From assembly GCA_034679905.1 (NCBI GenBank), contig JAXDAH010000141.1, positions 1 through 41,079 of the forward strand: a stretch of DNA of 41,079 nt, read 5' to 3'. The notes under the pieces are model-generated. The model made no database searches, was not told the DNA's origin, and worked only from the letters and a program-made list of their open reading frames with translations. Origin of the DNA: Methanomicrobiales archaeon. GTDB lineage: Archaea > Halobacteriota > Methanomicrobia > Methanomicrobiales > JACTUA01. Position numbers and translations under genes: made by a program. The first letter of the stretch is position 1; every line of letters starts with the position of its first letter. Positions 2,259 through 37,717 of this stretch are shown here, one piece after another.

Positions 2259-2693
2259 CTACTGGAAGGTGCTGCGCTCCAGGAGCTGCCCCTCATGTGC
2301 CAGGAGCTCGCGGATCGCCATGCGGGGATCGTCCACGCGGAGGATCAGCACGGCGGCGTCCTTGCCGCTGTAGGCGTAGGAGTACTCGATGTTGACGTTT
2401 GCCTCCCCCAGGATGCGGGCGATCTCGTAGAGGCCCCCGGGCTCGTCCCGCATCTTCACCCCGATCACGTCGGTAAACGAGACAATGAACCCCATCTCGG
2501 TCAGTTTCTTGTGCGCACGGTCCGGATGATCCACGAGCGCGCGGACCACGCCGAAGCCGTCGGCCTCGGCAATGGAGAACGCGAAGATGTTGATCTTCTC
2601 CTCCTCGAGCGCACGGGCGACCGCCGCCAGCCGCCCGGGCTTGTTCTCTGAAAAGACAGAGATCTGCTGGATGATGTACTTCTCTTTCTCCAT
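2259..2693 (-). CDS. ACT domain-containing protein
   Basis: 144-aa ORF with two ACT-like repeats (ISVFSENKPGRLAAVARALEEEKINI...; VKMRDEPGGLYEIARILGEANVNI). Its start abuts the stop of the upstream PaaK gene (2693/2694). Confidence 0.85.
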   Translation of the reverse strand: MEKEKYIIQQISVFSENKPGRLAAVARALEEEKINIFAFSIAEADGFGVVRALVDHPDRAHKKLTEMGFIVSFTDVIGVKMRDEPGGLYEIARILGEANVNIEYSYAYSGKDAAVLILRVDDPRMAIRELLAHEGQLLERSTFQ

Positions 2694-3995
2694 CTAGAGC
2701 ACCCTCTTGTCGACAACCCTTTTCGCCTTCCCCTCGAAGCGGGGGAGGGAGCCGGGCGCCACCAGCTCCACGTCGGCGCTGACGTTCAGCGAGTTCTGGA
2801 GCTTGTGGGCCACTTTCTTCTTTAAGTTCATCAGGTCGGGAATCTTGTCGGAGAACGACTCCGGCGAGAGCTCTACCCGCACCAGCATCTCGTCGAGGGC
2901 CCCCGTGCGGTCGACCACGATCTGGAACTGCCGCCCGACCTCCGGGATCCCCATCAGCGCGTGCTCGATCTGGGAGGGGAAGACGTTGATCCCCCGGATG
3001 ATCAGCATGTCGTCCACCCGTCCCTGGATGCGGGTGATGCGGGGATGCGTCCGCCCGCAGGGGCAGGGATCGTCGTTCAAGGTGGTGATATCCCCGAGGC
3101 GGAAACGGATCATGGGCAGCGCCTCCTTCTGCAGGATGGTCATCACCAGCTCGCCGCGCTCGCCCGGGGCGCAGGGCTCTCCGCTGTTCGGGTCCAGGAC
3201 CTCCGTCAGTGCGAAGTCGCTCCAGATGTGCATCCCCTTCTGCTCGGTGCACTCGGTGAAGAGCGGCCCCGACAGTTCGCTCGTCCCGTAGATGTCGAAG
3301 GCCCGTATCCCCAGCCACTCCTGGATGCGGTTCCGCATCCGCTCCGACCAGGGCTCGGCGCCCAGGATGCCGGTCCGCAACCGGGTGTCCTTCGCGATGC
3401 GGACACCCATCTTCTCCGCCACCTCGCCGATGTGGATCAGGTAGGAGGGGGTGCAGGCGATCGCGGTCGCGCCCAGATCCTGCATCAGCTCGATCTGACG
3501 CTCGGTGTTCCCCACGCTCGTGGGGAGTACCGTCGCCCCGATCCGCTCCGCCCCGTAGTGGAGTCCGAGTCCGCCGGTGAAGAGGCCGTAGCCGTAGCTC
3601 ACCTGCATCACGTCCCCCCGCCCGAGCCCGCAGGAGGTGAGCGCCCGTGCGAGCGACGTGGCCCAGGCGTCCACGTCCCGCTGGGTGTAGCCGACCACGG
3701 TCGGTTTGCCCGTGGTGCCGCTCGAGACGTGGTAGCGCACGAGCTCCTCCTTCCCCGCCGTGAAGATCCGGTCGGGATAGTTGTCCCGCAGATCCCGTTT
3801 GTACATGAACGGGAGCTTCGTCACGTCGTCGAGCGTGTGGATATCGTCGGGATGGATCTGCGCCTCGCGCATCCTCTCGTGGTAGAAGGGGCTGAAGCTG
3901 TAGAGCCGGTAGACCAGGGTCTTCAGGAGCCGGAACTGGAGTCTTTGAAGCTCCTCTCTCGGCATCTCCTCGATCCGCGGATCCCAGTAGCTCAA
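2694..3995 (-). CDS. paaK: phenylacetate-CoA ligase family protein (PaaK / coenzyme F390 synthetase-like)
   Basis: Adenylate-forming motifs SSGTTGKPTVV, YGTSE, and a C-terminal RGINVFPSQIE. The long N-terminal extension of ORF 2694..4553 is an Arg/Gly-rich artefact. TTG at 3995 is preceded by GGAGGG and gives ...SYWDPRIEEM, aligning with the paralog N-terminus. Alternative ATG at 3965. Confidence 0.88.
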   Translation of the reverse strand: MSYWDPRIEEMPREELQRLQFRLLKTLVYRLYSFSPFYHERMREAQIHPDDIHTLDDVTKLPFMYKRDLRDNYPDRIFTAGKEELVRYHVSSGTTGKPTVVGYTQRDVDAWATSLARALTSCGLGRGDVMQVSYGYGLFTGGLGLHYGAERIGATVLPTSVGNTERQIELMQDLGATAIACTPSYLIHIGEVAEKMGVRIAKDTRLRTGILGAEPWSERMRNRIQEWLGIRAFDIYGTSELSGPLFTECTEQKGMHIWSDFALTEVLDPNSGEPCAPGERGELVMTILQKEALPMIRFRLGDITTLNDDPCPCGRTHPRITRIQGRVDDMLIIRGINVFPSQIEHALMGIPEVGRQFQIVVDRTGALDEMLVRVELSPESFSDKIPDLMNLKKKVAHKLQNSLNVSADVELVAPGSLPRFEGKAKRVVDKRVL

Positions 3996-5284
3996 TACAA
4001 TCCCTCCCGGTGATCGACGACCCGGCGCGCCTTCCCCTCGAATCGGGGCAGGGAGCCGGGCTCCACCAGCTTCACGGCGGTCCGCAGCCCGAGCGCGTCG
4101 TGCAGGGCCCGGGCCACCTGCTGCTGGATCCTGGCGAGATCCCGCAGCTCCCCGCTGAAGAGCGCCCGGTTGATCTCCACCTCGATCGTCATCTCGTCCA
4201 TGTGGTTGATACGGTCTATGTGCACCATGAAGTGATCTCCCACCTCGTCCAAAGCCAGCAGTACATGTTCTATCTGCGAGGGGAAGACGTTTATGCCCCG
4301 AATGACCAGCATGTCGTCGCTCCTCCCGGATAAGCGGGCGATCTTCTGCCCGCGACCGCAGGCGCAGCCATCCTCCATCAACATGGTGATGTCGCCTGTG
4401 CGGTAGCGGACGAGCGGCATCGCCTCTTTCACGAGCGGGGTGATCACCATCTCGCCGCGCTCTCCCGGGCCCAGCCGCTCCCCGCTCGCCGGATCGATGA
4501 TCTCCACCAGGTAGCAGTCGTGCCAGATGTGCAGCCCGTCCCGCTCCGGGCACTCGAAGGCGACGCCGGGCCCGAACATCTCGGAGAGCCCGTAAGAGTC
4601 GTACGCGGTCACCTGGAGCCGCTCCTCGAGTTCGCGGCGCATGTTGTCCGACCAGGGCTCGGCGCCGAAGATGCCCGTTGTGAGGGAGGGGAGCTCCGCC
4701 TCCATCGACTCGGCAACCTCGGCGAGGTGCATGGCATAGCTCGGGGTGCAGTGGATGGCGTTCACGCCGAAGTCCTGGATCATCTCGATCTGCCGTTTGG
4801 TGTTACCGGTCGCCGAGGGGACGACGGTGAGCCCGATCAGCTCGGCGCCGTAGTGGAAGCCGAGCCCGCCGGTGAAGAGGCCGTAGTTCACCGCATTCTG
4901 GAAGACATCCCCCTCCTTGAGACCGATCATGGTCAGGTTGCGGGCGATCAGCTCCGCCCAGCGCGCCAGATCCTGCCGCGTGTAGCCGACCACGGTAGGC
5001 TTTCCCGTGGTACCCGAGGTGGTGTGGATCCGCACCACCCGGTTCATCGGCACGGCGAGGAAGCCGAAGGGGTAGCCCTCGCGCAGCTCTTTCTTGCTGG
5101 TGAAGGGGAGCCTCTCCACGTCGTCGAGCGTGCGGATGCTCTCGGGGGCAACTCCCGCTTCTGCAAACTTTCTGCGGTAGAACTCCACGTTCTGCGCCTG
5201 GGATAGCGTCCACTGCAGGGCGCTGAGCTGGTGCTCCTCCAGGGCGCGACCCTGCAGGGTCTCCATTTTCTGATTCCAGAACAT
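3992..5284 (-). CDS. paaK: phenylacetate-CoA ligase family protein, second paralog
   Basis: 430 aa starting MFWNQKMETL. Motifs TSGTTGKPTVV, YGLSE, RGINVFPSQIE. Its stop TGA overlaps the TTG start of the downstream paralog (TTGA). Confidence 0.9.
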   Translation of the reverse strand: MFWNQKMETLQGRALEEHQLSALQWTLSQAQNVEFYRRKFAEAGVAPESIRTLDDVERLPFTSKKELREGYPFGFLAVPMNRVVRIHTTSGTTGKPTVVGYTRQDLARWAELIARNLTMIGLKEGDVFQNAVNYGLFTGGLGFHYGAELIGLTVVPSATGNTKRQIEMIQDFGVNAIHCTPSYAMHLAEVAESMEAELPSLTTGIFGAEPWSDNMRRELEERLQVTAYDSYGLSEMFGPGVAFECPERDGLHIWHDCYLVEIIDPASGERLGPGERGEMVITPLVKEAMPLVRYRTGDITMLMEDGCACGRGQKIARLSGRSDDMLVIRGINVFPSQIEHVLLALDEVGDHFMVHIDRINHMDEMTIEVEINRALFSGELRDLARIQQQVARALHDALGLRTAVKLVEPGSLPRFEGKARRVVDHREGLY

Positions 5285-7674: not shown

Positions 7675-8961
7675 TCAGCCGCGGCGGATCACGCAGGTCA
7701 TGCAGTGGGCACCCCCATAGCCGCCGGTGGCGTTCGTGAGCAGGAGGGGGGTCATGTCGAGGCCGTGCGCATAGATGTCTGCCTTGTGCGGGAAGAACTC
7801 TGCCTCGTGGCGGAGGCGGGCATAATCGCGCTCCGCCTGAGCGAGCAGCGGCCCGTACTTCTGCGGATCCAGGTCGGCCTTCTCCTGGAGCCGCTTCAGC
7901 ACCAGGGGTGCCAGCACCGCCGAGTCGGGGGAGACGCAGACCCCTTCCCGGATGCAGAGGAAGTTGGTGGCATAGCAGAGCTGCTCGAGCGTGGAGATCT
8001 CGATCAGCTCCATCTCCTTCGCGGCGACGTACTCCCTCAGGCTCCCGCCCGGCCCCTCGCGCACATACCCTTCGGAGCCCCTGCGATAGACGTCCACGCT
8101 CGCCCGCTCCAGGAGCACCGGGGAGCCTACGGCCAGGTGCGGGGCGGCAATGTTGAAGTAGGTGTCCAGATGCATCGCCACCATGGGGTCGAAGCCTCCG
8201 ATGAGCGGGTGACGGGGGGCATGCACGACGGCCACCTCCTCGAACGAGAGTCCGTGCGCCAGCAGATCTCGCACCCCCTCTTCACTGGTGCGGGGGCCGC
8301 AGCCCACCAGCGCGAACGTGCCGGCGGGGATGAAATCCCCGCCCTCCAGACTGCCGCGGGCGATCCTGTGAGCAACCGGCAGCTCCAGCGCCCGCAGGGC
8401 GAGCGAGGAGAGATCCACCTCCCCGCTCCGCTCCGGGGTCGCCATCCGCCCGAGCACCATCCCGCGGTCGGTCGCCACCTGCTGGTCCCGCATGAAGTAG
8501 AGGTTGTGGAGGGGGTTGTCCAGCTCCACCCGCACGCGATCGCGGCTAATGGTGAGCACCGGATCGAGCACGGCGATTCCGAAGAGGTGTTCGGAGTCCC
8601 GTTCCCCCAGGGGCAGGGGAGAGCAGAGCTCGGCGCGGAGCCTCGGCGGCAGCTCCCCCTCCGGTATGGCGCACCGCCTCTCCAGCCGCTGGCGGGCGAG
8701 CTCCAGGAGATCCTGGCGGATCGCCGGCACGTAGCCCGCCCCCTGCACCACCGCCTCCTCGAGCCGCTCCACCCGGACCTGGAAACTGTTCCGCAACACC
8801 TCGACCAGGCGGCTGTGCTCCCGCTCGGCCTCTCCGAGGTTGAAGAAGCGCTCGTACAGGTGAGAACCCGGCGCCAGGAGGGCAAAGAAGACCTCGATCC
8901 CCGGAGCATGCACCATCACGCGGCGCAACGGCTCCCACTCCGATCCAGCCCCGGCCTGCAT
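7675..8961 (-). CDS. arginine deiminase-family (guanidino-group modifying enzyme) protein
   Basis: 428 aa with an ATG start. C-terminal GGYGGAHCMTC, the catalytic-Cys motif typical of arginine deiminase/amidinotransferase-fold enzymes. Internal LYFMRDQ and MHLDT motifs. Confidence 0.8.
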   Translation of the reverse strand: MQAGAGSEWEPLRRVMVHAPGIEVFFALLAPGSHLYERFFNLGEAEREHSRLVEVLRNSFQVRVERLEEAVVQGAGYVPAIRQDLLELARQRLERRCAIPEGELPPRLRAELCSPLPLGERDSEHLFGIAVLDPVLTISRDRVRVELDNPLHNLYFMRDQQVATDRGMVLGRMATPERSGEVDLSSLALRALELPVAHRIARGSLEGGDFIPAGTFALVGCGPRTSEEGVRDLLAHGLSFEEVAVVHAPRHPLIGGFDPMVAMHLDTYFNIAAPHLAVGSPVLLERASVDVYRRGSEGYVREGPGGSLREYVAAKEMELIEISTLEQLCYATNFLCIREGVCVSPDSAVLAPLVLKRLQEKADLDPQKYGPLLAQAERDYARLRHEAEFFPHKADIYAHGLDMTPLLLTNATGGYGGAHCMTCVIRRG

Positions 8962-9080
8962 GCTCAGCAGTAATCTCTACCTCCATTTAACCCTGCCCAT
9001 CTCGGAAAAACGCGAAAAAACGATGGTTTAATGTGAACGCGGAGGCCACTACAGGTAAAGAGAAGTCGAGGTGTGCAGCG

Positions 9081-10010
9081 ATGGGTCATCCTACCTGGTT
9101 GGTCGTCCACGGCTACGGCGCCCACATCAAGGCCACGCAGTCGCAGCTGATCGTCCAGCGGGGCGGGGTGCTGGAGCGGCATCCCCTGGACACCGTGCAG
9201 CACCTGCTGGTGCTGGGCGGACACACCATCCATTCCGCCGCCGTCACGACACTCCTGAAGGGCGGAGCGTCCATCACCTTCTTCGATCCCGACGGCACCC
9301 CCCTCGGGATGCTCCACCGCTACGGGGACCGTCCGCAGGAGCGGATCCGCTCCGCCCAGCAGAGTTCTCCCGGATGGAAGTACGCGATCGCCATCGCGAC
9401 GACGGCGATCCGGATCCGCACCCTGCACGTGGAGCAGCTCGCCGAAGCCGCGGACGAGCCGCTCCTCTTCGAGGGCGAGTCCTTGCTGCTCCACCAGGCC
9501 CAGCAGGAGCTCGAGTACCTGGTGCGGATGGAGGAGGTGCGGCGGCTCTACAGGCTCACCACGGACATGTACTACGAGATCCTGGCGCGGACCCTCCCGC
9601 CGGAGCTCGGGTTCCGCCGGCGGACCGAGCGCCCGCATCGCGACCCGGTCAACGCCCTCCTCTCCCTGGGATACGCGGTCCTCTTCAGTGCCTGCAGCGT
9701 CGCGGTGCACGGGGCCTACATGGACCCGGACCTCGGGATGCTCCACGAGGGGGCGGCGGGGCTGATCCACGACATCACCGAGACACTGAAACCCCGCATG
9801 GTGGATGCGGTCGTCTTCGCGATGGCCCGAAACGGTATCGCTCCCGACGCCTACGAGTGCACGGAGAAGCGCTGCCACCTCTCGCCCGACCTCACGGAGG
9901 CGCTCATCGAAGCACTGCACGAGTCCGTCCGGCAGGAGGAGATCGACACCTACGTCAACAGTCTCCGCGAGTCCCTGCTCTACAACACACCGTTTCAGGT
10001 CTCGTCCTGA
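9081..10010 (+). CDS. cas1: CRISPR-associated endonuclease Cas1 homolog, stand-alone
   Basis: ATG at 9081 preceded by GAGGTG. N-terminal beta-domain pattern (LVVHGYGAHIKA..LIVQRGG..PLDTVQHLLVLGGHTIHSAAVTTLLKGGASITFFDPDGTPLG). C-terminal motifs RPHRDPVNALLSLGYAVL and GMLHEGAAGLIHDITETLKPRMVD (His plus acidic pair). Confidence 0.8.
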   Translation: MGHPTWLVVHGYGAHIKATQSQLIVQRGGVLERHPLDTVQHLLVLGGHTIHSAAVTTLLKGGASITFFDPDGTPLGMLHRYGDRPQERIRSAQQSSPGWKYAIAIATTAIRIRTLHVEQLAEAADEPLLFEGESLLLHQAQQELEYLVRMEEVRRLYRLTTDMYYEILARTLPPELGFRRRTERPHRDPVNALLSLGYAVLFSACSVAVHGAYMDPDLGMLHEGAAGLIHDITETLKPRMVDAVVFAMARNGIAPDAYECTEKRCHLSPDLTEALIEALHESVRQEEIDTYVNSLRESLLYNTPFQVSS

Positions 10011-10282
10011 TGCCTGCTCCGCTGCACGGAAAACTGCGAGAAATCGGTATCGGGGTGGGGCAGGATCTCCAGTTCGCGGACGACCGCCCGCGGGCAGCCG
10101 TATAGCATCGAGGTGAACTTCTCGAGAATCACCGGATCGGCGCTCGCCACGACCCGCACCCGGCCGTCGGGGAGGTTCTCCACCTCCCCCCCGATGCCCA
10201 GGTTGACCGCCATCTTGCGGATGCAGGAGCGGAAACCCACCTTCTGGACGCGGCCGGCGATCAGAATCTCAACCGTCTTCAC
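9995..10282 (-). CDS. acyP: acylphosphatase
   Basis: 95 aa. GRVQKVGFRSCIRKMAVNLGIGGEVENLPDGRV matches the acylphosphatase signature. GTG start overlaps the stop of the upstream 1194-aa gene (GTGA). The 3' end overlaps cas1 by 16 nt (convergent). Confidence 0.85.
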   Translation of the reverse strand: MKTVEILIAGRVQKVGFRSCIRKMAVNLGIGGEVENLPDGRVRVVASADPVILEKFTSMLYGCPRAVVRELEILPHPDTDFSQFSVQRSRHQDET

Positions 10283-13200
10283 ACAAGGCGCTCCACCATG
10301 ATCCGCAACGCCACATCCAGCTCATCGAAGACTGTATCGCGGAGGTTGTCCTCCCGCACGTTCATGGCCGCATTCACCGCCATACCCAGGATATCGCGGC
10401 TCCGCTCCACCTCGTCGCCGGCGTAGACCCGCAGCGCCATATCCCCGAGGACGTACGCCCGCCGCGAGAGGGGGCGGATGATGGAGGCCTCCTCGACGGC
10501 GTACTGCAGAAGCCGATCGGCCACTTTGTCCTGCCCCCCGTCCCGCGCGAGGAGAGAGAGCTCCACGGCGTACTGGGCCCGCTTCGCACGGTCCGGCAGG
10601 GAGCGGATGGCCCGATCGACGGACGCGGCTTCCTGGACCGTGAACCGCCCCTTGTCGATGCTGTCGTAAGCCTGGCGCAGGAGGCGGTAGGCGTTGGTGG
10701 CTGCCATATCCTCCCCGGCGGCGCCGAGCTGGGAGAGAAGCGTATCCCGAACCTGCTCGTCCGGGATGCCGCCCGCGACGCGAATCGCCCGCTTCCGCAG
10801 GGACTCGTCCCCCCGCTTGGCGTGCAGCATCAGCAGGAGCTGCACGATGCCCTTCTTCACCATAGAGGAGATGAAGGGGATCTGGATCGCTTCGACCGCC
10901 TTCTCCGCCTCCCCGAGCAGGCGGATGCTGTCGTCCTTCTCGCCGTAGGTCTCGGCGAGGGGGATCACGTCGAGCAGCATGGAGGCCCGATCGTAGGGCA
11001 GCGGGATGTCCAGGATCCCCTGGTAAATGGACGACAGGATGCCCTTCCCCTTGGCGCTCTGGATCACGATGGGGAAGATGGCAACGAGCGCGTTCACGTA
11101 TTCGATCGGATCCTGAATCTGCTTCACGAGATCCAGCGTCATGTCGATGTACTCGTCCCGCGGGTTCAGCGCCTGGATGCTCACGACGGAGAGGACGATC
11201 TGGCGGCGGAGCTGGGAACTCCGCTCCTCGTCCACCATCGGCAGGAGGTCGAGCGCCTCGTTCAGGGCCTGGCGGGCCTCCTCCTCGTCCACCTTCCCGA
11301 GAAGCCCGGAGAGGTCGGAGAGGATCAGCACCCGTTCGTAGATGTCCTTCACCTGACCCGCGGCGGTGTGCACCCGGTGCAGGATCTCCTGGGCACGCCG
11401 TGTCTTCTTGATCCGCAGGTAGGAGTCGGCCAGGTTGGCCATCCGCGAGAGCTTCAGGTAGGAGTCGCCCGTGAGGGAGAGGAAACGGTAGGTCAGGTCC
11501 AGGATCACCATCGAGGTCTTCGCGTGCTCCAGGCGCTGCAGCAGGTCGACCATCACCTCGTTCGGTCCGGGCGAGTCCATGTCCTCCACGAAGTCCTTGA
11601 AGTTGGAAGCGACCCGGTAGATCATCGCGTTCCGCTCGAGCGGACTCTCGATCTCCAGGATGAACAGCGCAAGCGGGATGATGTAGCTCGGGTTCTTCTG
11701 GTTCTGCTTGTACTCCAGGATGATGTCGATATAGCGGGCCAGTTTGAGCGCGATCTGGGGACGGTTCTTCTGCTCTTTCAAGAGCTGGACCGCCCGCTCG
11801 TAGGGCTCGAGCTGCCGGGCAAAGGCGAGCGGATCCTCGGGCTCCGGGTTCGCCTCGGCAAAGAGGAGGCAGCCGATCCGCACCAGCCCCTCCAGTATGT
11901 TCTCCCGCAGCTGCTGCCGCAGCGAGAGATCCGCGATCTGCTGGGTGAGAGCGTAGGCCTCGTTCAGGGCGTCGGGAGAGAGCTGGTGGATGCCGTAGCG
12001 GATCATGCCGTTGATCACGCTCTCGTAGGCGTAGAGCTCGAAGTCCTTGTCCAGCAGGTCGCTGCTCCAGACCCGCATGCGGTTCAAGAGATTCAGGTCG
12101 TTCTGCTCCACGGCGAGGAGGGAGGCCTCGTCGATGATCCGGCAGAGGGCCTCCGAGCGCGAGCGCTGCCCCTCGATCGCGCAGGTGAGCCCGACGGCCC
12201 GCTGGAGGAGGTCCCGGTTCCGGCGGGTGACGGCGATCTTGGCCATCTCAATCACGATGAAGGAGATCGCCTTCTCCCGCTCCGCCTGGTTGCTCATCTG
12301 GTCCGCCATGTTGATCAGGATGGAGGCGTCGTGGAACTGGACAAATCCTCGTTCGAGCAGGATGCGGATGCAGCTCATCAGGAGCTCGTCCTGATGGGTG
12401 TGCATGCGGATCAGGGACTCGATCGCGGTGATGTGGGAGACGATCAGGTCGAAGTCGTACTCCTTGCAGATCTCGGCTACGGCACGGGCGATGAGCGTGT
12501 CGCGGGTGTCGGCGTCGTAGAGGTCGATGATCTTTCGCTGCAGGAGTTCGATCTCGTACTTCAGCACGCCCTCCTTGATGAGCCGCACGCTGGTATCGAG
12601 GGCATGCTTGCCGGCCCGCTCGTGGGGGGATCCGATCCTTGAGAAGATATCGAGAGCGTTGTAGAACTCCCCGCCCCGCAGGAGGCTGTTGATGATCAGC
12701 AGGTACTGGGAAAGGTAGGACTCGGTCGACTCCCGGGCAGCCTCCTCCAGGATCGGGACGACGCCCAGGAGGATGGTGATGTCGCCGACATGCTCCACGA
12801 CCGCGGTGCTGGCGCTCACGATCTCCTTCACCGGGTGCCAGCCCGGGTCCTCCACGCGCTCGTTGAACTCCAGCGCCTTCTCCAGGTACCAGCGGTCGCC
12901 GCTCTTCTCCGCCTTCTCCAGCAGCTTGATGACGATGCACGTGGCCGACAGCGGGATATCCTTCTCCAGCTTGAGGAGCGTGCTGTAGATCTGCCGCTTC
13001 TCCCGCAGGCGGTCCAGCAGCTGCTCGATCAGCACCGCGATAATCTCCACCCGCCGGGGCTCCGGCACGTCCTCCATCTCGTCCAGGACGGACTTTATAT
13101 CCGAGACGTGTTTCCCGAGCACCGAGCGGGAGGTCTTCTCCGCGATGCTCGCGATGCAGTTTAAGCGGCGGATCTTCTGCTTGATCTCCGTGGCGCTGCG

Positions 13201-13863
13201 GAAGGCGTCCACCACGATGCCGAGATCCTGGCGGAGGATGCCGATCGTGGCGATCGCCTTCGCCAGTTCGCTGTGGAGGAGCGAGCGTTTCGAGATGTCC
13301 CCCATCAGCTCGGTCAGCTCGAGAGAGGTGTAGAGCAGCCGGGTCTCCTTGACGTTGATGCTCCAGACGATGATTAAGGGGATGATGTCGATGAGGATAT
13401 TGGATCGGTACTTCCGGAACCCGATGTGCTGGACGATATCCATGCCCTTCTCGATCAGGACTGCGTCCTTGCGGTTCACGCCGGCCTCGATAAGCTCCTT
13501 GCTGATGGTCGCGAGGACCTTGCTCTGGTAGCTCTTCCGCTTCAGCTTGTCGCAGAGCTCGAAGACCGCCTGGAGCCAGAGCTCGTCTTTGGTCTCCACG
13601 TACATCTGGGAGGCCCGGACGGCAACCTCGTCGATCTCGGCATCGGAGAGTTCGTCCAGGACCGACAGCATCTCGGGGGACCGCTCCTTGAAGATGGTGG
13701 TGACAATCGTCTTGTTGATGGAGTCCAGGATGAGCTTTCGCTCTTTGCGCCTCTGAATGGTGGAAACGTTCCGGATGAGGTGCCGCACCTCGTCCTGGTC
13801 CCGCCGGGAGAGCGCCAGGTTGATCTTCTGTTTGATATTGATATTACTCTCGTCTACAGCCAC
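10279..13863 (-). CDS. large (1194 aa) all-alpha helical-repeat protein of unknown function
   Basis: Single uninterrupted ORF whose amino-acid composition is coding-like (Leu/Ile/Glu/Lys/Arg/Ala-rich), unlike the Arg/Gly/Pro antisense artefacts. Repetitive helix-turn-helix-like periodicity with no catalytic motif recognised. GTG start at 13863, just downstream of a TTAAAATA box. Confidence 0.85.
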   Translation of the reverse strand: MAVDESNINIKQKINLALSRRDQDEVRHLIRNVSTIQRRKERKLILDSINKTIVTTIFKERSPEMLSVLDELSDAEIDEVAVRASQMYVETKDELWLQAVFELCDKLKRKSYQSKVLATISKELIEAGVNRKDAVLIEKGMDIVQHIGFRKYRSNILIDIIPLIIVWSINVKETRLLYTSLELTELMGDISKRSLLHSELAKAIATIGILRQDLGIVVDAFRSATEIKQKIRRLNCIASIAEKTSRSVLGKHVSDIKSVLDEMEDVPEPRRVEIIAVLIEQLLDRLREKRQIYSTLLKLEKDIPLSATCIVIKLLEKAEKSGDRWYLEKALEFNERVEDPGWHPVKEIVSASTAVVEHVGDITILLGVVPILEEAARESTESYLSQYLLIINSLLRGGEFYNALDIFSRIGSPHERAGKHALDTSVRLIKEGVLKYEIELLQRKIIDLYDADTRDTLIARAVAEICKEYDFDLIVSHITAIESLIRMHTHQDELLMSCIRILLERGFVQFHDASILINMADQMSNQAEREKAISFIVIEMAKIAVTRRNRDLLQRAVGLTCAIEGQRSRSEALCRIIDEASLLAVEQNDLNLLNRMRVWSSDLLDKDFELYAYESVINGMIRYGIHQLSPDALNEAYALTQQIADLSLRQQLRENILEGLVRIGCLLFAEANPEPEDPLAFARQLEPYERAVQLLKEQKNRPQIALKLARYIDIILEYKQNQKNPSYIIPLALFILEIESPLERNAMIYRVASNFKDFVEDMDSPGPNEVMVDLLQRLEHAKTSMVILDLTYRFLSLTGDSYLKLSRMANLADSYLRIKKTRRAQEILHRVHTAAGQVKDIYERVLILSDLSGLLGKVDEEEARQALNEALDLLPMVDEERSSQLRRQIVLSVVSIQALNPRDEYIDMTLDLVKQIQDPIEYVNALVAIFPIVIQSAKGKGILSSIYQGILDIPLPYDRASMLLDVIPLAETYGEKDDSIRLLGEAEKAVEAIQIPFISSMVKKGIVQLLLMLHAKRGDESLRKRAIRVAGGIPDEQVRDTLLSQLGAAGEDMAATNAYRLLRQAYDSIDKGRFTVQEAASVDRAIRSLPDRAKRAQYAVELSLLARDGGQDKVADRLLQYAVEEASIIRPLSRRAYVLGDMALRVYAGDEVERSRDILGMAVNAAMNVREDNLRDTVFDELDVALRIMVERLV

Positions 13864-19149: not shown

Positions 19150-19585
19150 GCAACAACCTTCCCCTGCGGTGCCGGCCCGCCTGTCAGGACCGGTATGCCG
19201 TCACCGTATAAAAACGGTGTGAAAGACCCCACAGACCCGATTCGTGCTCACGCCCCGGCTATTAAGCATGGCGGAGAGAGGTCCCGATCCTGCCCGGCGG
19301 CCCGGCTGTCCGCACCTCTACCGGTCCAGCAGGAGAACCGCACCAGCACACCGCTGGAGACCCTGCAGCGGAGGGAACCGGGTCCGGGCTAGTACATTTC
19401 TGGTCATGGGAGAGCGATCCGTGTGCGATAGACTTCCTGAGCGATGAGGTGGCGACGAGATCGCGGTCCGGATGGAGACGCCAGGGCTTCACAGCCACGC
19501 TTGAGAGAAAAATCTTGGAGGACCACAGAGGGAGTGTCGATCCCCGCACCCATAACCGTGCCTGATACGACCCTGTGTAAGCCCT

Positions 19586-19631
19586 ATCGCACCAGAGGGG
19601 GGAAAGGGATTCGGGATTCGGAGGGGCGGGG
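19586..19631 (+). repeat. ATCGCACCA-led G-tract unit 1 (G-quadruplex-type motif)
   Basis: atcgcaccagaGGGGGGaaaGGGattcGGGattcggaGGGGcGGGG: at least four G3+ runs with short loops. Confidence 0.55.
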
Positions 19632-19751
19632 TTGCGCCTCCTACAGTGGCGAGGGTCTGAGTCTGAATGGGTCCCCATCTACCGCCAGGAGAGCAGGGAT
19701 GAGACGATGCATATCAAAAACGCTCCTATACCCCCTAACCGGGCAGGTCCA

Positions 19752-19796
19752 ATCGCACCAATGGGAAGAGGGGATTTTAAAGGGGGAGGAGGGGGG
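19752..19796 (+). repeat. ATCGCACCA-led G-tract unit 2 (G-quadruplex-type motif)
   Basis: atcgcaccaatGGGaagaGGGGattttaaaGGGGGaggaGGGGGG. Same 9-nt leader as unit 1, 166 nt downstream. Its 3' part can pair with the following C-tract (hairpin about 19781..19812). Confidence 0.55.
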
Positions 19797-20370
19797 CGCG
19801 TCCCCTTCCCCCTACTGCCCCCACCCCGCCGATATGATCGCCTCCGGGGGGAGGAAGATCGGGAGCGATACTTCACCATGCCCCCTGGAGTGCGATGCCC
19901 CTGTAGTTGCCGATCTCACCTCCGTCCAAGCCATCGGGCCAACCTGGGAGACGATCGTCCCCCATTCCAGGGTAATACGCTCCCAATATCCCCATCCTAC
20001 GCATCCCACCCAGTCGGGGGAAGAGAGCCCGGTCCACAGAGGATGCTTCGCCCTACTCACGCAACTGCAATACGAGAATGGCTACCGAATCCCTCACCAT
20101 CCCGGGCAAAAGGCAGTTCTTCCCGAATCGGGAGATTGTAGTCCTGATATATGCCGTATCTTGGTGATATAGGGGAGGGAGGTGCAATCGATCTCGTCCA
20201 TCCACCGCAACACCACCTATCGATCTCACGAAGATCCTCTGCGATGGGAAACCTCCACAGACTGCCACGGGCCCGGGGAGTCTGGCGGAGTGAGGCGTTG
20301 GTTCCCTTCTATGTACATCTCTAAAATGCTTGAAAAAAGCGTAGAACCGGGGCAGGAGAGGCGATCGCCG

Positions 20371-20937
20371 TCAGCTCGCCACGTCCGCCCCGTACTTCTC
20401 CTGCAGCATCTTCAGCAGCGCATCCGAGCGGCGGGATATCGCGACGATCCGCCTGACTGCCCGGTTCAGCTGTCCGTTCAGTTCGTCCACCTGTTTGCGG
20501 GTGACGTAGCCTCTCTGGCTTGCACTCTTGATGCGGTCCTCTGCGATCTGGCAGTTGTAGAAGAACCGGTCGATGATGCAGCTGGCCTCGTGGAGGTTGA
20601 ACCGGAACTGGTTGGTCCCCTCGCCCAGGATCTCGTTCAGCTCTTTGAGTTCCACGTCGATCTCGTTCAGGATGTCGATGATGGAGGCGAACGCCTGCTG
20701 CCGCTCCATCTCTTCCAGCTCCCGCGTGGCATCGACCGCTCCATCCAGTTTCTTCACGTAGAGCCCCAGGGCGTGAGCAATGTCCCGGAAGAGCTGCTTA
20801 TCCCTCCCCTCGAGAGTCTCTGCCCGCTCCTGAAGGCGTTCTACCTCCTTCTCCAGACGCATCCGAAATTCGTTCTCATCGTACTCCATACAATCGGCCC
20901 CCTCTTCCGATGAACTCGGGTCCATCTCCTCCCCCAT
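20371..20937 (-). CDS. hypothetical coiled-coil protein
   Basis: The ORF 20371..21006 starts at a TTG. The first ATG is at 20937 (MGEEMDPSSS...). Glu/Leu/Arg-rich heptad-like sequence. AT-rich island with TTTATTAA upstream. Exact start uncertain. Confidence 0.6.
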   Translation of the reverse strand: MGEEMDPSSSEEGADCMEYDENEFRMRLEKEVERLQERAETLEGRDKQLFRDIAHALGLYVKKLDGAVDATRELEEMERQQAFASIIDILNEIDVELKELNEILGEGTNQFRFNLHEASCIIDRFFYNCQIAEDRIKSASQRGYVTRKQVDELNGQLNRAVRRIVAISRRSDALLKMLQEKYGADVAS

Positions 20938-21006
20938 TCTCCGGCGGCAGAGATCGGCTTTACAGCCTACCCGGTACTCCGCCTGCCACAAGTTTACCAA
21001 TGCCAA

Positions 21007-21140
21007 ACATGTTAATAAATGTTTCCAAACGATCGTGCACTATAAAGGAGTAAATATTCAATTGTTGTGATAAATATAATCCCATCGCTCAGATTACGGA
21101 ATTTCGAGCCATTTCGAAGTTTACATCAGGTTTAGAGGTA
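21007..21140 (-). promoter_or_regulatory. AT-rich promoter island
   Basis: A/T-rich stretch with TATA-like boxes (ttaataaat, ctataaagg, aaatattc, gataaatataat), 5' of the minus-strand gene 20371..20937. Confidence 0.45.
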
Positions 21141-21427
21141 TTAATTCTGGTTATATCGTTGGTATGGAACAGAATCGTCCTTCACAGGCCGTATACGATC
21201 GGCATACCCGTTCGGGCGCAGTAGTACCACCCGCAGGAGCCGGCAGCGCCGCGGCAGTCTCTCCTCCGGGTGCTCCCCCCTGCTTCGCCGGCATGCGGCC
21301 TCCCCTTCGAGGGGAGGTCGCAGGAACTCCACCCGGGGCGGGGATGAGGTGCGCCATGCGCGAGGTAGGGGCAATCGCCACTGCGCGGGAGCGGCAGGCG
21401 TCTGCAAGCCCGTGAAGGCGGCCGCAT

Positions 21428-21736
21428 TCAGGCAGACACCCGAGCGGAGCTTCCAGGACTCTCCCGTGTCCTGCCGACATCCTCCCGTGCTTCCGCCCGG
21501 CCGGGATCGATCTCCAGCACCCGCTCGAATCTGCGCAGTGCCAGTTCCGGATGACCCATCTGCTGCAGCAGACGTCCTTTCTCCAGCCATGCATCCGCAC
21601 AGGAGGGATCGATGTCTATCGCCCGATCGTAGCACTGCAGGGCTTCACGACACCGCCCGTAACTGCGGAGCGTGTTTCCCCGGCTCACCCAGACAGCGGG
21701 TCCGTGCGTTGTACCGAACATCCGTAGAAGACCCAT
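21428..21736 (-). CDS. small TPR-repeat protein (possibly a truncated remnant)
   Basis: ATG preceded by GGAGG. Two to three TPR units (GNTLRSYGRCREALQCYDRAIDIDPSCADAWLEKGRLLQQMGHPELALRRFERVLEIDP). The last repeat runs into a non-TPR tail. Confidence 0.55.
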   Translation of the reverse strand: MGLLRMFGTTHGPAVWVSRGNTLRSYGRCREALQCYDRAIDIDPSCADAWLEKGRLLQQMGHPELALRRFERVLEIDPGRAEAREDVGRTRESPGSSARVSA

Positions 21737-21802
21737 AGAGCCTCCGCATTCTATAGAGCAGACTCAAATTGCCGGATATATCAATATTTCTTCCGTATTG
21801 CT

Positions 21803-22555: not shown

Positions 22556-22969
22556 GTGCGTATATCCGTCAGCGTATCAGCGGGAGATGGTTCTACCGTG
22601 GTGACAGAAGGCGATACCCCGTATCGGGGGGACGCAGATGAGCCGGCAGCGCTCCTCAGGAGCGAGAGCATCTTCGGTGCCCGGGTCCGCAACCGGAACG
22701 GGGAGGACCTCGGGCACATCCGGGACATACTGGTGGACGTCGGGAGAGGGCGGGCGGCATTCGTCGTGCTCTCCTCCGGGGGGCTCCTGGGCGAGAAGTA
22801 CTTCGCCTTCCCCTGGAAGAACCTGACACGCCGCCCGGAGCGGGGTGAGTTCGTCCTGGATGTCGAGAGGGAGCAGCTGGAGAATACTGAAAGACTCCGG
22901 CCGGACGAATGGCCGGTACACGGCACCTGGGAACACACCCGGTCCCTGATGCCCTACCGGGAGGAATGA
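22556..22969 (+). CDS. PRC-barrel domain protein (paralog 1)
   Basis: Core ...GARVRNRNGEDLGHIRDILVDVGRGRAAFVVLSSGGLLGEKYFAFPWKNL...LDVEREQLEN, as in PRC-barrel proteins. GTG start at 22556. Alternative GTG at 22598 preceded by GGGAGATGG. Confidence 0.72.
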   Translation: MRISVSVSAGDGSTVVTEGDTPYRGDADEPAALLRSESIFGARVRNRNGEDLGHIRDILVDVGRGRAAFVVLSSGGLLGEKYFAFPWKNLTRRPERGEFVLDVEREQLENTERLRPDEWPVHGTWEHTRSLMPYREE

Positions 22970-23232
22970 ACAGAGACGGTGCGATGGGAATATGTCGGAA
23001 GGATGCTGTTCGTACGGTATCGTGCGGCTCTGGATCGAACGGAGCAGCGGGTGCCTCCTCGATCCCCGCTGTCCGTTCACCGTATCGGGTTCCACCTCTC
23101 CGGCCCACGGTCTCTGTTCTTGACTCGTGCCTGGAGGCGTACAGGCGCGGAGAAAAGCGGGCATCTTCCACGAATTGCCGGCGTGCAAGCAACATTTAAA
23201 TAATATCGTTTGCTATTTCCCGCCACTGCCCG

Positions 23233-23862
23233 ATGTCTGGTTGCGGCAGCGAGAGCGATACGGAGATGGTACACGTGGTGAACGCAGGAACTGAAACAGT
23301 TCCCGGAGCCCGAACCCGGGTGGTCGGAGAAGGACTGCGGCTGTTGTCCGCCAGAGACCTCATGGATGTCAGGGTGCGAAACCCGCAGGGCGAGGACCTC
23401 GGCGAGATCAAGAACCTGATGGTCGACCTCAACGCCGGTCGAATCGTCTACGCCGTGCTCGCCTTTGGCGGGGTGCTCGGAGCGGGCGAGAAGCTCTTCG
23501 CCATCCCCTGGGAGGCCTTCACCCAGAGAACCGAAGAGAGGACCTTCATCCTGAACGTGGACCGGGAGCAGCTGGAGAAGTCCCCCGGGTTCCGCGAGGA
23601 CGAGTGGCCCATGCACGGCGACTGGGAGCTCGTGCAGCCAGCCCCGTATGCGGCGGAGCGGGCTGCAGTCCCCGAGGAGAGGGTGGTGGAACGCAGGGAG
23701 ACACGGGAGATGCCCATGGGCGAATCCGTCGGGCTGTATACCCCCCGTCGAGACGTCGAATGTCCCACCTACGAGGCCGGCCGCAGGTCCCCGGAGTACG
23801 ATCGCGAATGGCTGGAGGGCATGTTCTCCTGGTTCGGCGTCCAGCCGTACTGGTGCGAGTAG
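23233..23862 (+). CDS. PRC-barrel domain protein (paralog 2) with a conserved C-terminal ...YDREWLEGMFSWFGVQPYWCE tail
   Basis: The ATG is about 27-39 nt downstream of the TATA box ATTTAAATAATAT (23194..23206). PRC core VRVRNPQGEDLGEIKNLMVDLNAGRIVYAVLAFGGVLGAGEKLFAIPWEAF. Confidence 0.8.
   Translation: MSGCGSESDTEMVHVVNAGTETVPGARTRVVGEGLRLLSARDLMDVRVRNPQGEDLGEIKNLMVDLNAGRIVYAVLAFGGVLGAGEKLFAIPWEAFTQRTEERTFILNVDREQLEKSPGFREDEWPMHGDWELVQPAPYAAERAAVPEERVVERRETREMPMGESVGLYTPRRDVECPTYEAGRRSPEYDREWLEGMFSWFGVQPYWCE
23374..23634 (+). repeat. paralogous 261-nt tract (copy A), high nucleotide identity to 24343..24603
   Basis: Collinear with no indels. Perfect blocks of 42, 39 and 53 nt are shared, including synonymous positions. 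Confidence 0.8.
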
Positions 23863-24273
23863 CGGATAACCGCTGCGGGGGCGCGCAAGCGTAACCGGGA
23901 TGCGAAGAGGGTCCGCGGCGCAACCGCGGGTGAACGCTCTCCAGCCTCCCACCAGGCTCTTTTCATCAGCCAGGGACGATAACCCAAAAACCCCCGCCTC
24001 CAGCAGGAATGGATGGGGAGCACTCCATGCTGAGAGCATCCGCTCCGGGAGTGTGCCTCGCGGAAGGCCACACTTTAGCGACTATCGATGCCTTCGAAAT
24101 AACCTCCGATCCATCGTCCAGGTAGATGCAGGCAAATTCACCCCGAATCCGATATCACGCGCATTCCGCACTTCCGTGCCGGAGAAACGTATAAATAGTC
24201 TCGCGCCTCTACAACCCGCCTTGCCTGGAGGAGTCGTATACGCCTCGGCACAGAGATTGGAGACGTGAGATAG

Positions 24274-24966
24274 ATGGAGGCCAGAACGAGGAGAATGGAA
24301 GGCATGAGGCTGCTGTCTGCGGATGACACCATGGACACCAAGGTGCGGAACCCGCAGGGCGAGGACCTCGGCGAGATCAAGAACCTGATGATCGACCTGA
24401 ACACGGGCAAGATCATCTACGCCGTGCTCTCCTTCGGGGGAATCCTGGGAGCGGGCGAGAAGCTCTTCGCCATCCCCTGGGAGGCCCTGACAGCCCAGCC
24501 GGAGCGGGAGGGGTTCGTCCTGAACATGGACAAGGAGCAGCTGGAGAACGCCCCCGGGTTCCGCGAGGACGAGTGGCCCATGCACGGCGACTGGGAGCTC
24601 GTGGAGCCGACCCGCACGGCGGCATACTATACGGCCGCACGCGAAGTCTACCCGGAGGAGAGAGCTGCCGTCACCGAAGAGCGGATCGAACCGCGCGCCG
24701 AGACCTGGGAGGAGCGGCAGGAGGCAGCGAAGAGACGGGATGAAGAGAGGTACCGGGGGATGAGCAAGGCGGAGATACGGTCCAAACAGGCCGCGGAAGT
24801 CCAGGCACTGCCGCATACCATGCGCCCGTCCACCGGTCGCGACATTCCCGGACGGGGACCGGCGTGCGCCGACTATGAACGGGCCAAGAAATCGCCGGAC
24901 TACGACCGCGAGTGGCTGGAGGGCATGTTCACCTGGTTCGGATCGCCGCCGTACTGGTGCGAGTAA
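24274..24966 (+). CDS. PRC-barrel domain protein (paralog 3) with a conserved C-terminal ...YDREWLEGMFTWFGSPPYWCE tail
   Basis: ATG preceded by TGGAGA. A TATA box GTATAAATAG (24189..24198) lies upstream. The PRC core is nearly identical to paralog 2. Confidence 0.8.
   Translation: MEARTRRMEGMRLLSADDTMDTKVRNPQGEDLGEIKNLMIDLNTGKIIYAVLSFGGILGAGEKLFAIPWEALTAQPEREGFVLNMDKEQLENAPGFREDEWPMHGDWELVEPTRTAAYYTAAREVYPEERAAVTEERIEPRAETWEERQEAAKRRDEERYRGMSKAEIRSKQAAEVQALPHTMRPSTGRDIPGRGPACADYERAKKSPDYDREWLEGMFTWFGSPPYWCE
24343..24603 (+). repeat. paralogous 261-nt tract (copy B)
   Basis: See copy A. The 3' terminal 75 nt of the two genes (23788..23862 and 24892..24966) are also closely similar. Confidence 0.8.
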
Positions 24967-24978
24967 GATCGCCCTTTC

Positions 24979-25009
24979 GGGGGTGGCGTACCCCCTGCGG
25001 ATCCTTTTT
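24979..25009 (+). terminator. hairpin plus T5 tract after PRC-barrel paralog 3
   Basis: GGGGGT-ggcgt-ACCCCC stem-loop (24979..24995) followed by TTTTT at 25005..25009, 13 nt after the TAA stop. Confidence 0.5.
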
Positions 25010-25010
25010 A

Positions 25011-25056
25011 GGATGCCTGATCCAACAGGACGGATTCTTCTCCTGTGCAGGCATCC
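25011..25056 (+). promoter_or_regulatory. extended stem-loop upstream of the RNase III-domain gene
   Basis: GGATGCCTG (25011..25019) pairs perfectly with CAGGCATCC (25048..25056). An inner stem pairs CAGGA (25026..25030) with TCCTG (25041..25045). Confidence 0.45.
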
Positions 25057-25144
25057 GCGGGGCACCAGGCGGACAGGGCATTCCGTGGTGCACGCGGTTC
25101 ATATAGTTGGGCGTCCAGATCAGCTGCTGCAGGGGGGTTGGTCC

Positions 25145-25627
25145 GTGGCAGAGAGCGAAAATCGGGAGAGAGAACTCGAACAGGAGCTCGGCTACTCTTT
25201 TACGGATCCTGCCCTGCTGCGGCGGGCGCTCACCCGGCTCGCCTACGCGAAGGAGCAGGGGCTGGACGCGGCGGACCACATGGACGCTCTCGCGACCCTG
25301 GGGGATGCGGTCTTCGAGCTGGCGACGATCGAGAGCCTCGTGCGGTCGGGCGAGACCGAGAAGGGCGCGATCACCAACCAGAAGGTGAACCGCGTCAATA
25401 TGGTGCAGCTCCGCAACCTTGCCGAGTCCCTCCGGATCGAGCGCTACGTCTACTGGGGCAGAGGGGAGGAGGCGCAGCACATCTGGACGTCGGGACGGGT
25501 GCTCGCCGAGTGCATCGAGGCGGTGGTCGGCGCCGTCTACCTGGACGGGGGCATGGCAGCGGCCCGGCAGGTGCTCCAGCACCTGCAGTTTCTCCGTCCC
25601 ATGATTAAGCCCTACTGCATGATGTAG
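25145..25627 (+). CDS. RNase III-domain-only protein (Mini-III-like)
   Basis: GTG at 25145 preceded by AGGGGGG. Signature MDALATLGDAVFEL (Mini-III-style ..LA.LGDAV.E) and ECIEAVVGAVYLDGG. No dsRBD. The upstream part of ORF 24875..25627 is out of context and was discarded. Confidence 0.7.
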   Translation: MAESENRERELEQELGYSFTDPALLRRALTRLAYAKEQGLDAADHMDALATLGDAVFELATIESLVRSGETEKGAITNQKVNRVNMVQLRNLAESLRIERYVYWGRGEEAQHIWTSGRVLAECIEAVVGAVYLDGGMAAARQVLQHLQFLRPMIKPYCMM

Positions 25628-30937: not shown

Positions 30938-31999
30938 ATGGATGAACCGGATCCGACCCTGAGCCAGGGAGGGCTGCACCCCGACTTCCAGGAAGAGATG
31001 GCGTACTTCGATGCGAACAGGGTATACGCGCTGCAGATCGAGACCACGCTCGCCTGCCCGCAGGGGTGCCTCTACTGCTACGCATCCGCGAACAACGGCA
31101 CGGGACGCGAACTGCCCGCGGCGGCGATCTGCACCGTCCTGGAGGCGGCAGCCGGCATGGGGATCCGGGCGATCGACTGGCTGGGAGGCGATCCCCTGGT
31201 GCGGTCCGACTGGCACGGGCTGATGCAGCATGCCCGCAGCCTCGGCATGACGAACAACATCTGGTCCAGCGGACTGCCGTTTCTCGATGCCAGCGTGGCA
31301 GAGAGGGCAATCCGGGTCTCGGAAGGCGGATTCGTCTCCGTCCACCTCGACACCCTGGACGAGGCGATCTACCGTGTCCTGCACGCGGGCGATCCCCGGG
31401 AGAAGATCCGGGGCATACTCCGGGGGGTGGACAACCTCATCGCGCTCGGAAAATCCCCCGACCAGCTGATCAACTGCATCACGCTCACCCGCCCTCTCTC
31501 CGACGTGGAGAGGACCATCCGCTACTTTCGTGCGGAGAAGGAGATGCGGACCTGCATCACACCGCTCGTCCCGCTGGGAGGCGCCGCGGATCGCCCCGAG
31601 TGGCTGCCGGACATTCCCGCTATCCGCGACGCCTGCCGGGCGCGGGACCGGATCGACTACGCCGGCTCCTCCCTCTCCATGCACGCCATGGACGTGACCA
31701 AGTTCTACTGCGGAGGGATGGTCTGCATCACGGTGGACGGAGATGTCACCCCGTGCTCGCTGATCCGGAAGGGATGTGGCAATGTCCTCTCCGAGCGGCT
31801 GGACGCGATCGTCGAGGAGAACAGAGAGGATCTCCTGTTCATTCCCCTGCGATCGCCGCAGAACGGGGCGACTGCCTGCTCCCGTTGCAGCCACGGCGCC
31901 GTCTGCTGGGGGTGCCGGGCGGCGGCGTACTACCGGCATGGCAGTCTGCTGGCAGAGGACCCTCACTGCTGGATGCGCCTGGAGAGCGGGTATGGATGA
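30938..31999 (+). CDS. radical SAM protein with C-terminal SPASM domain
   Basis: CPQGCLYC (CxxxCxxC) near the N-terminus. C-terminal Cys cluster FYCGGMVCITVDGDVTPCS...CSRCSHGAVCWGCRA, typical of SPASM/twitch auxiliary clusters. Confidence 0.88.
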   Translation: MDEPDPTLSQGGLHPDFQEEMAYFDANRVYALQIETTLACPQGCLYCYASANNGTGRELPAAAICTVLEAAAGMGIRAIDWLGGDPLVRSDWHGLMQHARSLGMTNNIWSSGLPFLDASVAERAIRVSEGGFVSVHLDTLDEAIYRVLHAGDPREKIRGILRGVDNLIALGKSPDQLINCITLTRPLSDVERTIRYFRAEKEMRTCITPLVPLGGAADRPEWLPDIPAIRDACRARDRIDYAGSSLSMHAMDVTKFYCGGMVCITVDGDVTPCSLIRKGCGNVLSERLDAIVEENREDLLFIPLRSPQNGATACSRCSHGAVCWGCRAAAYYRHGSLLAEDPHCWMRLESGYG

Positions 32000-32829: not shown

Positions 32830-32886
32830 GAGCGGCCCAAAGGTTATTCAGGTAAGAGTCCGATATCGTTCGACGGATTGCGTGCG

Positions 32887-37653: not shown

Positions 37654-37717
37654 AGGGCTTCCATCCATGTATGTGCTGCTGCATCCGCCCATCGCGGTCC
37701 GGCAGACGCCGAACGCT

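Follow-up and report, generated by a model that had tools for sequence, protein, structure and literature searches.

Which functions can the Cas1 fold serve? Two are known: the protein acts as the spacer integrase of CRISPR systems and as the transposase of casposons. Here, we consider a stand-alone cas1 gene that lies at 9081..10010 (+) in a 41,079-nt stretch of DNA from a Methanomicrobiales archaeon (assembly GCA_034679905.1, contig JAXDAH010000141.1; this whole stretch is hereafter called the window). By orthology the gene falls into a lineage that is on record, Cas1-solo group 1, the recognition of which is said to be due also to Makarova, Wolf and Koonin in 2013; the lineage itself is not new. 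According to Krupovic et al. (2014), group 1 occurs in Methanomicrobiales only and gives no signs of having been transferred horizontally, and none of its members possesses the full catalytic set (PMC4046053). That set is the tetrad Glu-His-Asp-Asp/Glu, corresponding to E141, H208, D218, and D221 of E. coli Cas1, with the Glu residing in a GxEG motif (PMC4046053); placing Ala at the equivalent Glu abolishes the nuclease activity of E. coli Cas1 (as cited in PMC4046053). Casposases, in turn, keep all four catalytic residues, adjoin a family-B DNA polymerase (PolB) within elements bounded by terminal inverted repeats (TIRs), and have a patchy distribution (PMC4046053). The view that the group-1 genes are 'probably vestigial' has been attributed to Krupovic et al. 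(PMC9755687), and a 2025 paper on CRISPR classification leaves the solo lineage unmentioned.

How does the window gene compare? It can be called a group-1 orthologue because the Methanoculleus bourgensis MS2 protein, which is included in the group-1 supplementary alignment of Krupovic et al. 2014 (PMC4046053), is among its homologues (hit P0054; 52% identity, E 7e-98). Everything that characterises group 1 is found again here: the placement in the clade, a restriction to Methanomicrobiales with vertical inheritance and no sign of horizontal transfer, the absence of adjacent arrays or cas genes, and an incomplete catalytic set. There is no difference in kind; the window contributes an orthologue from an uncultured lineage of Methanomicrobiales known as a metagenome-assembled genome (MAG). 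The original prediction for this locus, which was made from the sequence alone and implied that the gene was something new, had thus come upon the published group 1 of Methanomicrobiales (PMC4046053), while its statement that orphan Cas1-solo lineages lack an assigned function was correct.

As that prediction had proposed, the product of the open reading frame (ORF) 9081..10010 is a genuine, full-length, two-domain Cas1 homologue of 309 aa. The Pfam profile PF01867 covers it from end to end (residues 7-280 matching positions 1-282 of 283; E 3.6e-48, 164.6 bits, cutoff 22.3) and the generic NCBIfam Cas1 model TIGR00287 returns 125.8 bits over a cutoff of 71.7, with none of the subtype-specific Cas1 models reaching, or coming near, its own cutoff for this protein. 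An N-terminal beta domain (approximately residues 1-85) is followed by a C-terminal helical domain (approximately 86-309). Thirty-seven homologues went into the AlphaFold2 (AF2) model, which is confident, with a predicted local distance difference test (pLDDT) of 92.2 and a predicted template-modelling score (pTM) of 0.91, and a Foldseek search of the PDB with this model retrieved Cas1 or casposase structures in all of the top 50 hits (best template-modelling score, TM, 0.79-0.86). The start ATG at 9081 is consistent with the N-termini of 36 homologues, and the peptides RPHRDPVNALLSLGYAVL and GMLHEGAAGLIHDITETLKP are both present in the translation. Of the features that define the Cas1 superfamily, the protein therefore has the profile match above cutoffs and the two-domain fold, but not the catalytic tetrad.

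To set residue equivalences, we used HMMER alignments to the Cas1 proteins of A. fulgidus (4n06) and Synechocystis (7cr6), along with a control alignment of the window protein, 12 clade representatives, and 84 canonical Cas1s obtained from an exhaustive representative search. The four catalytic positions in the window protein read Tyr157-His222-Asp231-Glu234 (Y-H-D-E). Tyr157 (codon 9549..9551, +) aligns without gaps with the catalytic Glu of both reference proteins (E141 in E. coli), in a column that is E in 84/84 canonical Cas1s; locally, R-L-Y-R replaces G-x-E-G, and R-L-x-R is the form that the clade has in place of the canonical motif. What remains of the catalytic loop and helix, His222...Asp231-x-x-Glu234 (9744..9782, +), with Lys237 coming next (9789-9791), has suffered a three-residue deletion between His and Asp: the spacing is 9 in the window protein, as in 10/13 clade sequences with the window protein counted, versus 12 in 84/84 canonical Cas1s. 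An intact catalytic centre is not supported: the His and the acidic pair, which the original prediction had read as intact, are indeed so (His222, Asp231, and Glu234), but the fourth residue, the Glu of GxEG, which it had missed, is Tyr157; similarly, the His-Asp spacing had rightly been read as shorter than canonical, yet by one to two residues rather than three.

The full tetrad E-H-D-D/E occurs in 0/75 species-level orthologues, compared to 84/84 canonical Cas1s. Loss of catalytic residues, which the prediction itself had named as a result that would speak against it, is thus what we found, both at Tyr157 and family-wide. Among these 75 full-length orthologues, position 157 (E. coli E141) is H in 40, S in 19, F in 4, N in 4, D in 3, Y in 2, Q in 2, and E in 1, and position 222 (E. 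coli H208) is His in 45 (60%), so that the residue is lost in 40%. Asp is present at position 231 (E. coli D218) in 74 and E/D at position 234 (E. coli D221) in 68, and Lys237 is kept in 71/75. With a site entropy at the 60th percentile, that of an average site, positions 157 and 222 are unconstrained. Judging from these alignments, the canonical metal-dependent active site is degenerate: essentially no member retains the metal-binding Glu, the His is dispensable, and the loop is shortened by three residues.

Which residues, then, have been conserved? According to site entropy, E133, E166, D188, and N191 are invariant across the orthologues, and D162, Y198, D231, and K237 nearly so. Conservation in the clade is shared with canonical Cas1s at 21 positions, and a further 29 are conserved in the clade and not in canonical Cas1, including W6, H15, H48, D71, E133, R155, D162, M163, E166, R170, R180, R264, and C265. 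A clade signature is D162-M-Y-Y-E166 (9564..9578, +), with D162 in 72/75 and E166 in 75/75 orthologues; its D, M, and E are unconserved in canonical Cas1s, Y164 is common to both, and residue 165 is usually Phe in the canonical proteins. Retained in common with canonical Cas1 is also the segment RRxxRPxxDPxNAxLSxGY, which presumably belongs to the C-terminal domain by which Cas1 structures bind DNA.

The clade is clearly set apart from other Cas1s. In a search of 1.84 billion representatives, no full-length member scored below 136 bits, and the Cas1s that came next in rank did not exceed 87.5. In a neighbour-joining tree that took in the nearest 84 canonical Cas1s (and no casposases), the clade was monophyletic in 30/30 bootstraps and subtended by the longest internal branch (0.63 versus a median of 0.05). 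A database of 5.8 billion proteins held 277 homologues; among the 120 matches listed, identity ranged from 45 to 86%, and all source names were methanogen-related, namely Methanomicrobiales or its genera and one 'Methanobacteriota archaeon'. One of the closest relatives, 86% identical, is a protein of GCA_030019205.1. A scan of GTDB species representatives yielded 80 species-level loci (L001-L080), among which the genera Methanoculleus, Methanoregula, Methanolinea, Methanogenium, Methanosphaerula, Methanocalculus, Methanospirillum, Methanofollis, and Methanocorpusculum are named. The record titles refer to Methanomicrobiales, to a genus of it, or to Methanobacteriota, with the exception of L054, a 2.6-kb contig that was binned to a bacterial MAG, yet carries the flanking genes common to all of the loci.

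In a CRISPR adaptation module, cas1 stands beside cas2 and an array; this arrangement is absent from the 41 kb. Neither in the window nor in 85 loci did Tandem Repeats Finder, a repeat finder, or a k-mer spacing scan reveal a CRISPR-like array, tandem arrays were likewise absent from the window, and no cas genes or arrays were adjacent to cas1-solo in these loci (1.38 Mb in total). When about 50 window ORFs were compared with Pfam or PADLOC, no Cas2, Cas4, PolB, HNH, or defence gene emerged, cas1 aside; in PADLOC, Cas1 models alone matched, and 0/9 other scanned window ORFs represented a defence gene. The window families are housekeeping ones, for example PaaK-like ligases, a CHASE4-PAS histidine kinase, a phosphoglucomutase (PGM)-like enzyme, trehalose synthesis, glycosyltransferases, and an agmatine deiminase fusion. 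The marks of a casposon—adjacent PolB, inverted repeats, and four catalytic residues—are missing as well: a search for TIRs and target site duplications returned chance-level pairs only (70-87% complementary), none of which brackets cas1. Within the window there are no tRNA genes or Rfam families, and the base composition of the cas1 region is uniform with its surroundings. These domain, repeat, and inverted-repeat scans bear out the description of the gene as a stand-alone cas1 without cas2, other cas genes, array, PolB, or TIRs.

Side by side with CRISPR adaptation Cas1s (A. fulgidus 4n06, Synechocystis 7cr6, and I-G/I-D/I-C-like proteins), the window protein displays the same two-domain fold (TM 0.79-0.86) and shares the conserved residues Q93, Y164, R181, P185, D188, N191, G197, Y198, D231, and D242. 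It differs in that its gene comes without cas2 and array, R-L-x-R stands for GxEG, three residues are deleted between His and Asp, and the His is unconserved in the family; moreover, its 125.8 bits on TIGR00287 contrast with 223-287 bits for the ten nearest canonical Cas1s. Casposases (Cas1-solo group 2; M. mazei 6opm) resemble it as an archaeal Cas1 fold outside CRISPR loci (TM 0.83-0.84). However, the window gene has no PolB or TIR, occupies a fixed locus, and encodes a degenerate site, and the similarity of its product to the M. mazei casposase is far weaker than that to CRISPR Cas1s (22.6 bits compared to 63 bits for A. fulgidus Cas1).

Is the gene still under selection? The ORF is intact in 74/78 loci, and the median pairwise ratio of nonsynonymous to synonymous substitution rates (dN/dS; NG86) of cas1-solo is 0.34, with values of 0.14 for the PaaK-like, 0.22 for the PGM-like, 0.27 for the AcyP, and 0.10 for the DUF5806 neighbours. 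From these data, cas1-solo is under purifying selection and not vestigial. For both flanking genes compared, the PGM-like and the 1194-aa one, pairwise protein distances correlate with those of cas1-solo at a Pearson coefficient of 0.94, as expected under vertical descent. Across the 80 loci, the conserved backbone consists of two PaaK-like genes (leftward), cas1 (rightward), and then acyP, the gene for a 1194-aa protein, and the PGM-like, MobB-like, and DUF5806 genes (all leftward). Since this gene order is kept throughout the order and divergence tracks the flanking housekeeping genes, cas1-solo is, as the original prediction had suggested, a stably domesticated chromosomal gene, and one that is inherited vertically.

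Upstream of the gene lies a conserved element, AAACGATGGTTTAAT (also given as AACGATGnnTTAAT and AAACGATGnnTTAAT; 9018..9032, +), whose ACGATG core begins 61 nt before the ATG. The pattern AACGATGNNTTAAT occurs without mismatch in 30/77 loci between -120 and -20 from the cas1 start, and with up to three mismatches in 60/77 loci, versus 43/1600 random 100-nt windows. The element sits 55-85 nt upstream of cas1-solo and is kept whatever gene lies upstream. Elsewhere, neither the 1.38 Mb of loci nor the window contained a further exact copy, and we found no inverted copy. Probably, the element represents a gene-specific promoter or operator. A scan for promoters and terminators of the bacterial type gave no result, the models being bacterial and not appropriate for archaea. 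In one locus (L029) the element is present in two tandem copies. Methanoregula loci have another, AT-rich box, GGTAGTAATTAG, which comes ~15 nt after it.

What might be the role of such a protein? We favour, as the rather likely explanation, that group-1 Cas1 serves as a vertically inherited, DNA-binding host factor that has lost its active site and is not an integrase. A Cas1 homologue would have been fixed in the chromosome of a Methanomicrobiales ancestor and passed on vertically from there. It has kept the complete Cas1 fold and the RRxxRPxxDPxNAxLSxGY segment and lost the canonical active site; the role of CRISPR spacer integrase or transposase would presumably no longer be exercised. The exapted, largely non-catalytic protein, probably a dimer by analogy to other Cas1s, would then bind DNA for a host function, be it housekeeping or stress-related. 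The loss of the Glu argues against spacer integrase activity. Several observations weigh against this interpretation. In the window protein, H222, D231, and E234 are still in place, which leaves a single catalytic residue missing, and D231 is near-invariant family-wide, so that residual or altered catalysis is conceivable, and the residue at position 157 is His in 53% of the members, which could in principle bind a metal. The dN/dS of cas1-solo exceeds that of its neighbours (0.34 versus 0.10-0.27). Also, cas1-solo stands as a monocistronic unit, with one neighbour divergent and the other convergent, a context that holds no functional hint, and a literature search did not find experimental, biochemical, or genetic work on any group-1 member.

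The first two of these points lead over to a protein that would have remained active, as a nuclease or an integrase, through a remodelled site in which His157 or another residue replaces the Glu, or E133, D162, or E166 complete the metal site, for use in a site-specific host DNA transaction. The near-invariant D231, the E/D at position 234 and the Lys237 in most orthologues, a His at 157 and/or 222 in 63/75 of them, the new invariant acidic residues of the clade, and the purifying selection on the gene all agree with this idea. Yet, the variation at positions 157 and 222 is no less than that of an average site (with S, F, N, R, Y, and Q included), 12/75 orthologues have no His at either, and, as noted above, Ala in place of the equivalent Glu abolishes the nuclease of E. 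coli Cas1 (as cited in PMC4046053). Besides, D162 and E166 follow residue 157 by 5 and 9 residues along the helix 150-169, the periodicity of which would place neither on the side of residue 157 in the model. Taken together, we regard a remodelled, active site as unlikely, albeit worth keeping in mind. Another, likewise tentative proposal, to which we give only slightly more credit, sees in group 1 a neofunctionalised host factor of the whole order and no inert relic. Its new activity might be the structure-specific binding or processing of DNA via the clade-specific invariant residues E133, R155, D162, E166, R170, R180, R264, and C265, and it would be controlled by AACGATGnnTTAAT, possibly through autoregulation.

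Alternatively, the protein could be a non-catalytic accessory subunit of a canonical Cas1-Cas2 encoded elsewhere in the genome, modulating CRISPR adaptation. In its favour, only one protomer per Cas1 dimer is catalytic in solved Cas1-Cas2 complexes, and the best profile matches of the window protein are CRISPR-type Cas1s rather than casposases. In light of a gene that is never found beside cas genes or arrays in the 85 loci, that occupies a fixed housekeeping locus, and that has its own conserved promoter-like element, we nevertheless deem such a role quite improbable. Lesser credence still is due to the idea that the gene is vestigial and decaying, left over from a CRISPR-Cas system or casposon since lost, and has no current function. 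Although the catalytic residues are unconserved (see also PMC4046053) and the dN/dS is somewhat elevated relative to the neighbouring genes, a relic would hardly be expected to persist throughout an archaeal order as a full-length ORF (74/78 loci), with a dN/dS of ~0.34, 21 positions conserved with canonical Cas1 plus 29 clade-specific ones, a confident AF2 model, a conserved upstream element, and co-divergence with housekeeping genes; these conservation data largely refute it. Finally, Cas1 homology is all that would speak for the gene belonging to a casposon-like or other mobile element, or to a CRISPR-Cas locus with its remaining parts just beyond the ends of the window. As there is no PolB, HNH, Cas2, or Cas4 in the 41 kb and there are no TIRs or arrays, and the same housekeeping flanks recur order-wide at a uniform base composition, the chances of this being correct are minute.

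Turning to the neighbours, acyP (9995..10282, -) encodes a 95-aa acylphosphatase (PF00708, E 2.4e-15) and is convergent with cas1, the two 3' ends overlapping by 16 nt in the window (9995..10010). A convergent acyP adjoins cas1-solo in 71/80 loci, with a 3' overlap in 58/67 measurable loci and a modal overlap of 17-19 nt. The overlap that the original prediction had pointed out is therefore real and widely conserved, but because the genes are convergent, it does not demonstrate a functional link; it may simply lock the gene pair together without implying a shared function. In two loci (L002, 3247-3453; L057, 1543-1757), ~4 copies of a 50-52-nt unit, repeated head to tail in tandem, lie exactly at the cas1/acyP junction and push the usual 3' overlap apart. 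Having no unique spacers, these head-to-tail repeats were rejected as CRISPR arrays.

After acyP follows, in 55/80 loci, the gene for the 1194-aa protein (10279..13863, -), which matches no Pfam or NCBIfam family and whose named homologues are all from Methanomicrobiales. Its AF2 model is an all-alpha solenoid of 66 helices (pLDDT 87.8), for which Foldseek returned generic TPR/HEAT scaffolds only, such as Ski3, IFT-A, and Ctr9 (TM 0.1-0.2). Its downstream position is conserved; any functional link to cas1 would be conjectural.

On the other side, and divergent from cas1, lies an arginine deiminase (ADI)-like gene with the amidinotransferase fold of guanidino-modifying enzymes (7675..8961, -; PF02274, E 1e-31), separated from cas1 by a gap of 119 nt (8962..9080). 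Its product scores 55-62 bits against arcA equivalog cutoffs of 414-489. This neighbour, which had been made part of the story, precedes cas1-solo in no more than 10/80 loci and, in addition, in the closest relatives (L081-L083); it is a lineage-specific insertion and stands outside the conserved unit. The synteny comparison that had been proposed for the three neighbours accordingly holds for acyP and the 1194-aa gene, both of which co-occur with cas1-solo, but not for the ADI-like gene. The histidine kinase gene is confined to the closest relatives, and the exact gene order of the window recurs in GCA_030019205.1 and GCA_030017635.1 (86% identity).

More generally, the upstream neighbour varies by lineage: PaaK-like in most loci, ADI-like in 10, archaemetzincin in 3, and glyoxalase in 4 (Methanospirillum). 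In five loci, rpoA1-rpoA2-L30e-nusA lies upstream on the same strand as cas1-solo; these are L053 (5321-10969), L069, L073, L076, and L078, from Methanosphaerula, some Methanospirillum, and two other MAGs. There, cas1-solo starts ~50-100 nt downstream of nusA, so that read-through transcription from the RNA polymerase operon may reach it. We also considered guilt by association and dismissed it, as the upstream gene changes with lineage and the constant acyP and 1194-aa genes are on the other strand, leaving no functional clue. In the window, two tandem paralogous genes for PaaK-like AMP-binding ligases occur together with an ACT-domain gene at 2259-5284 (-). The two paralogues share ~71-85% nucleotide identity over repeat segments; order-wide, it is this pair that usually sits upstream of cas1-solo, in divergent orientation.

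The remainder of the window holds a few further features. At 22556-24966 (+), PRC-barrel genes occur as three paralogues in tandem (direct repeat families D1, D3, D5, and D7), after which comes an ORF at 24875-25627 (+) with a Ribonuclease-III-like domain (PF14622, E 1.8e-21). To our knowledge, proteins of the RNase III type are uncommon in archaea. A 646-aa ORF (35752-37692, -) fuses a carbon-nitrogen hydrolase to a Porphyromonas-type agmatine/peptidyl-arginine deiminase domain, and looks as if two consecutive steps of a polyamine pathway were joined in a single protein; with the ADI-like gene (7675-8961) counted as well, the window has two guanidino-modifying enzymes. Three regions (19150-20400, 21000-21800, and 32000-32900) contain only ORFs without a Pfam family (for example 19444-20172, 20371-21006, 21141-21635, and 31839-32543). 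The GC content around 20-22 kb, at 0.58-0.59, is slightly under the window average.

The question of what group 1 does was raised in 2013-2014, and to it the window adds one more orthologue and no new kind of system. What goes beyond the papers that we consulted on group 1 is that cas1-solo and acyP overlap tail-to-tail throughout the order, together with the neighbouring 1194-aa protein, the strongly conserved upstream element, the quantified loss of the His (40%), and the evidence for purifying selection. For experimenters, the upstream element offers a concrete handle. If true, a host role for group 1 would constitute a third career of the Cas1 fold, one that is neither immune nor linked to transposons, and a Glu-less lineage kept across an order of methanogens would show how an integrase fold can be recycled for a host function.

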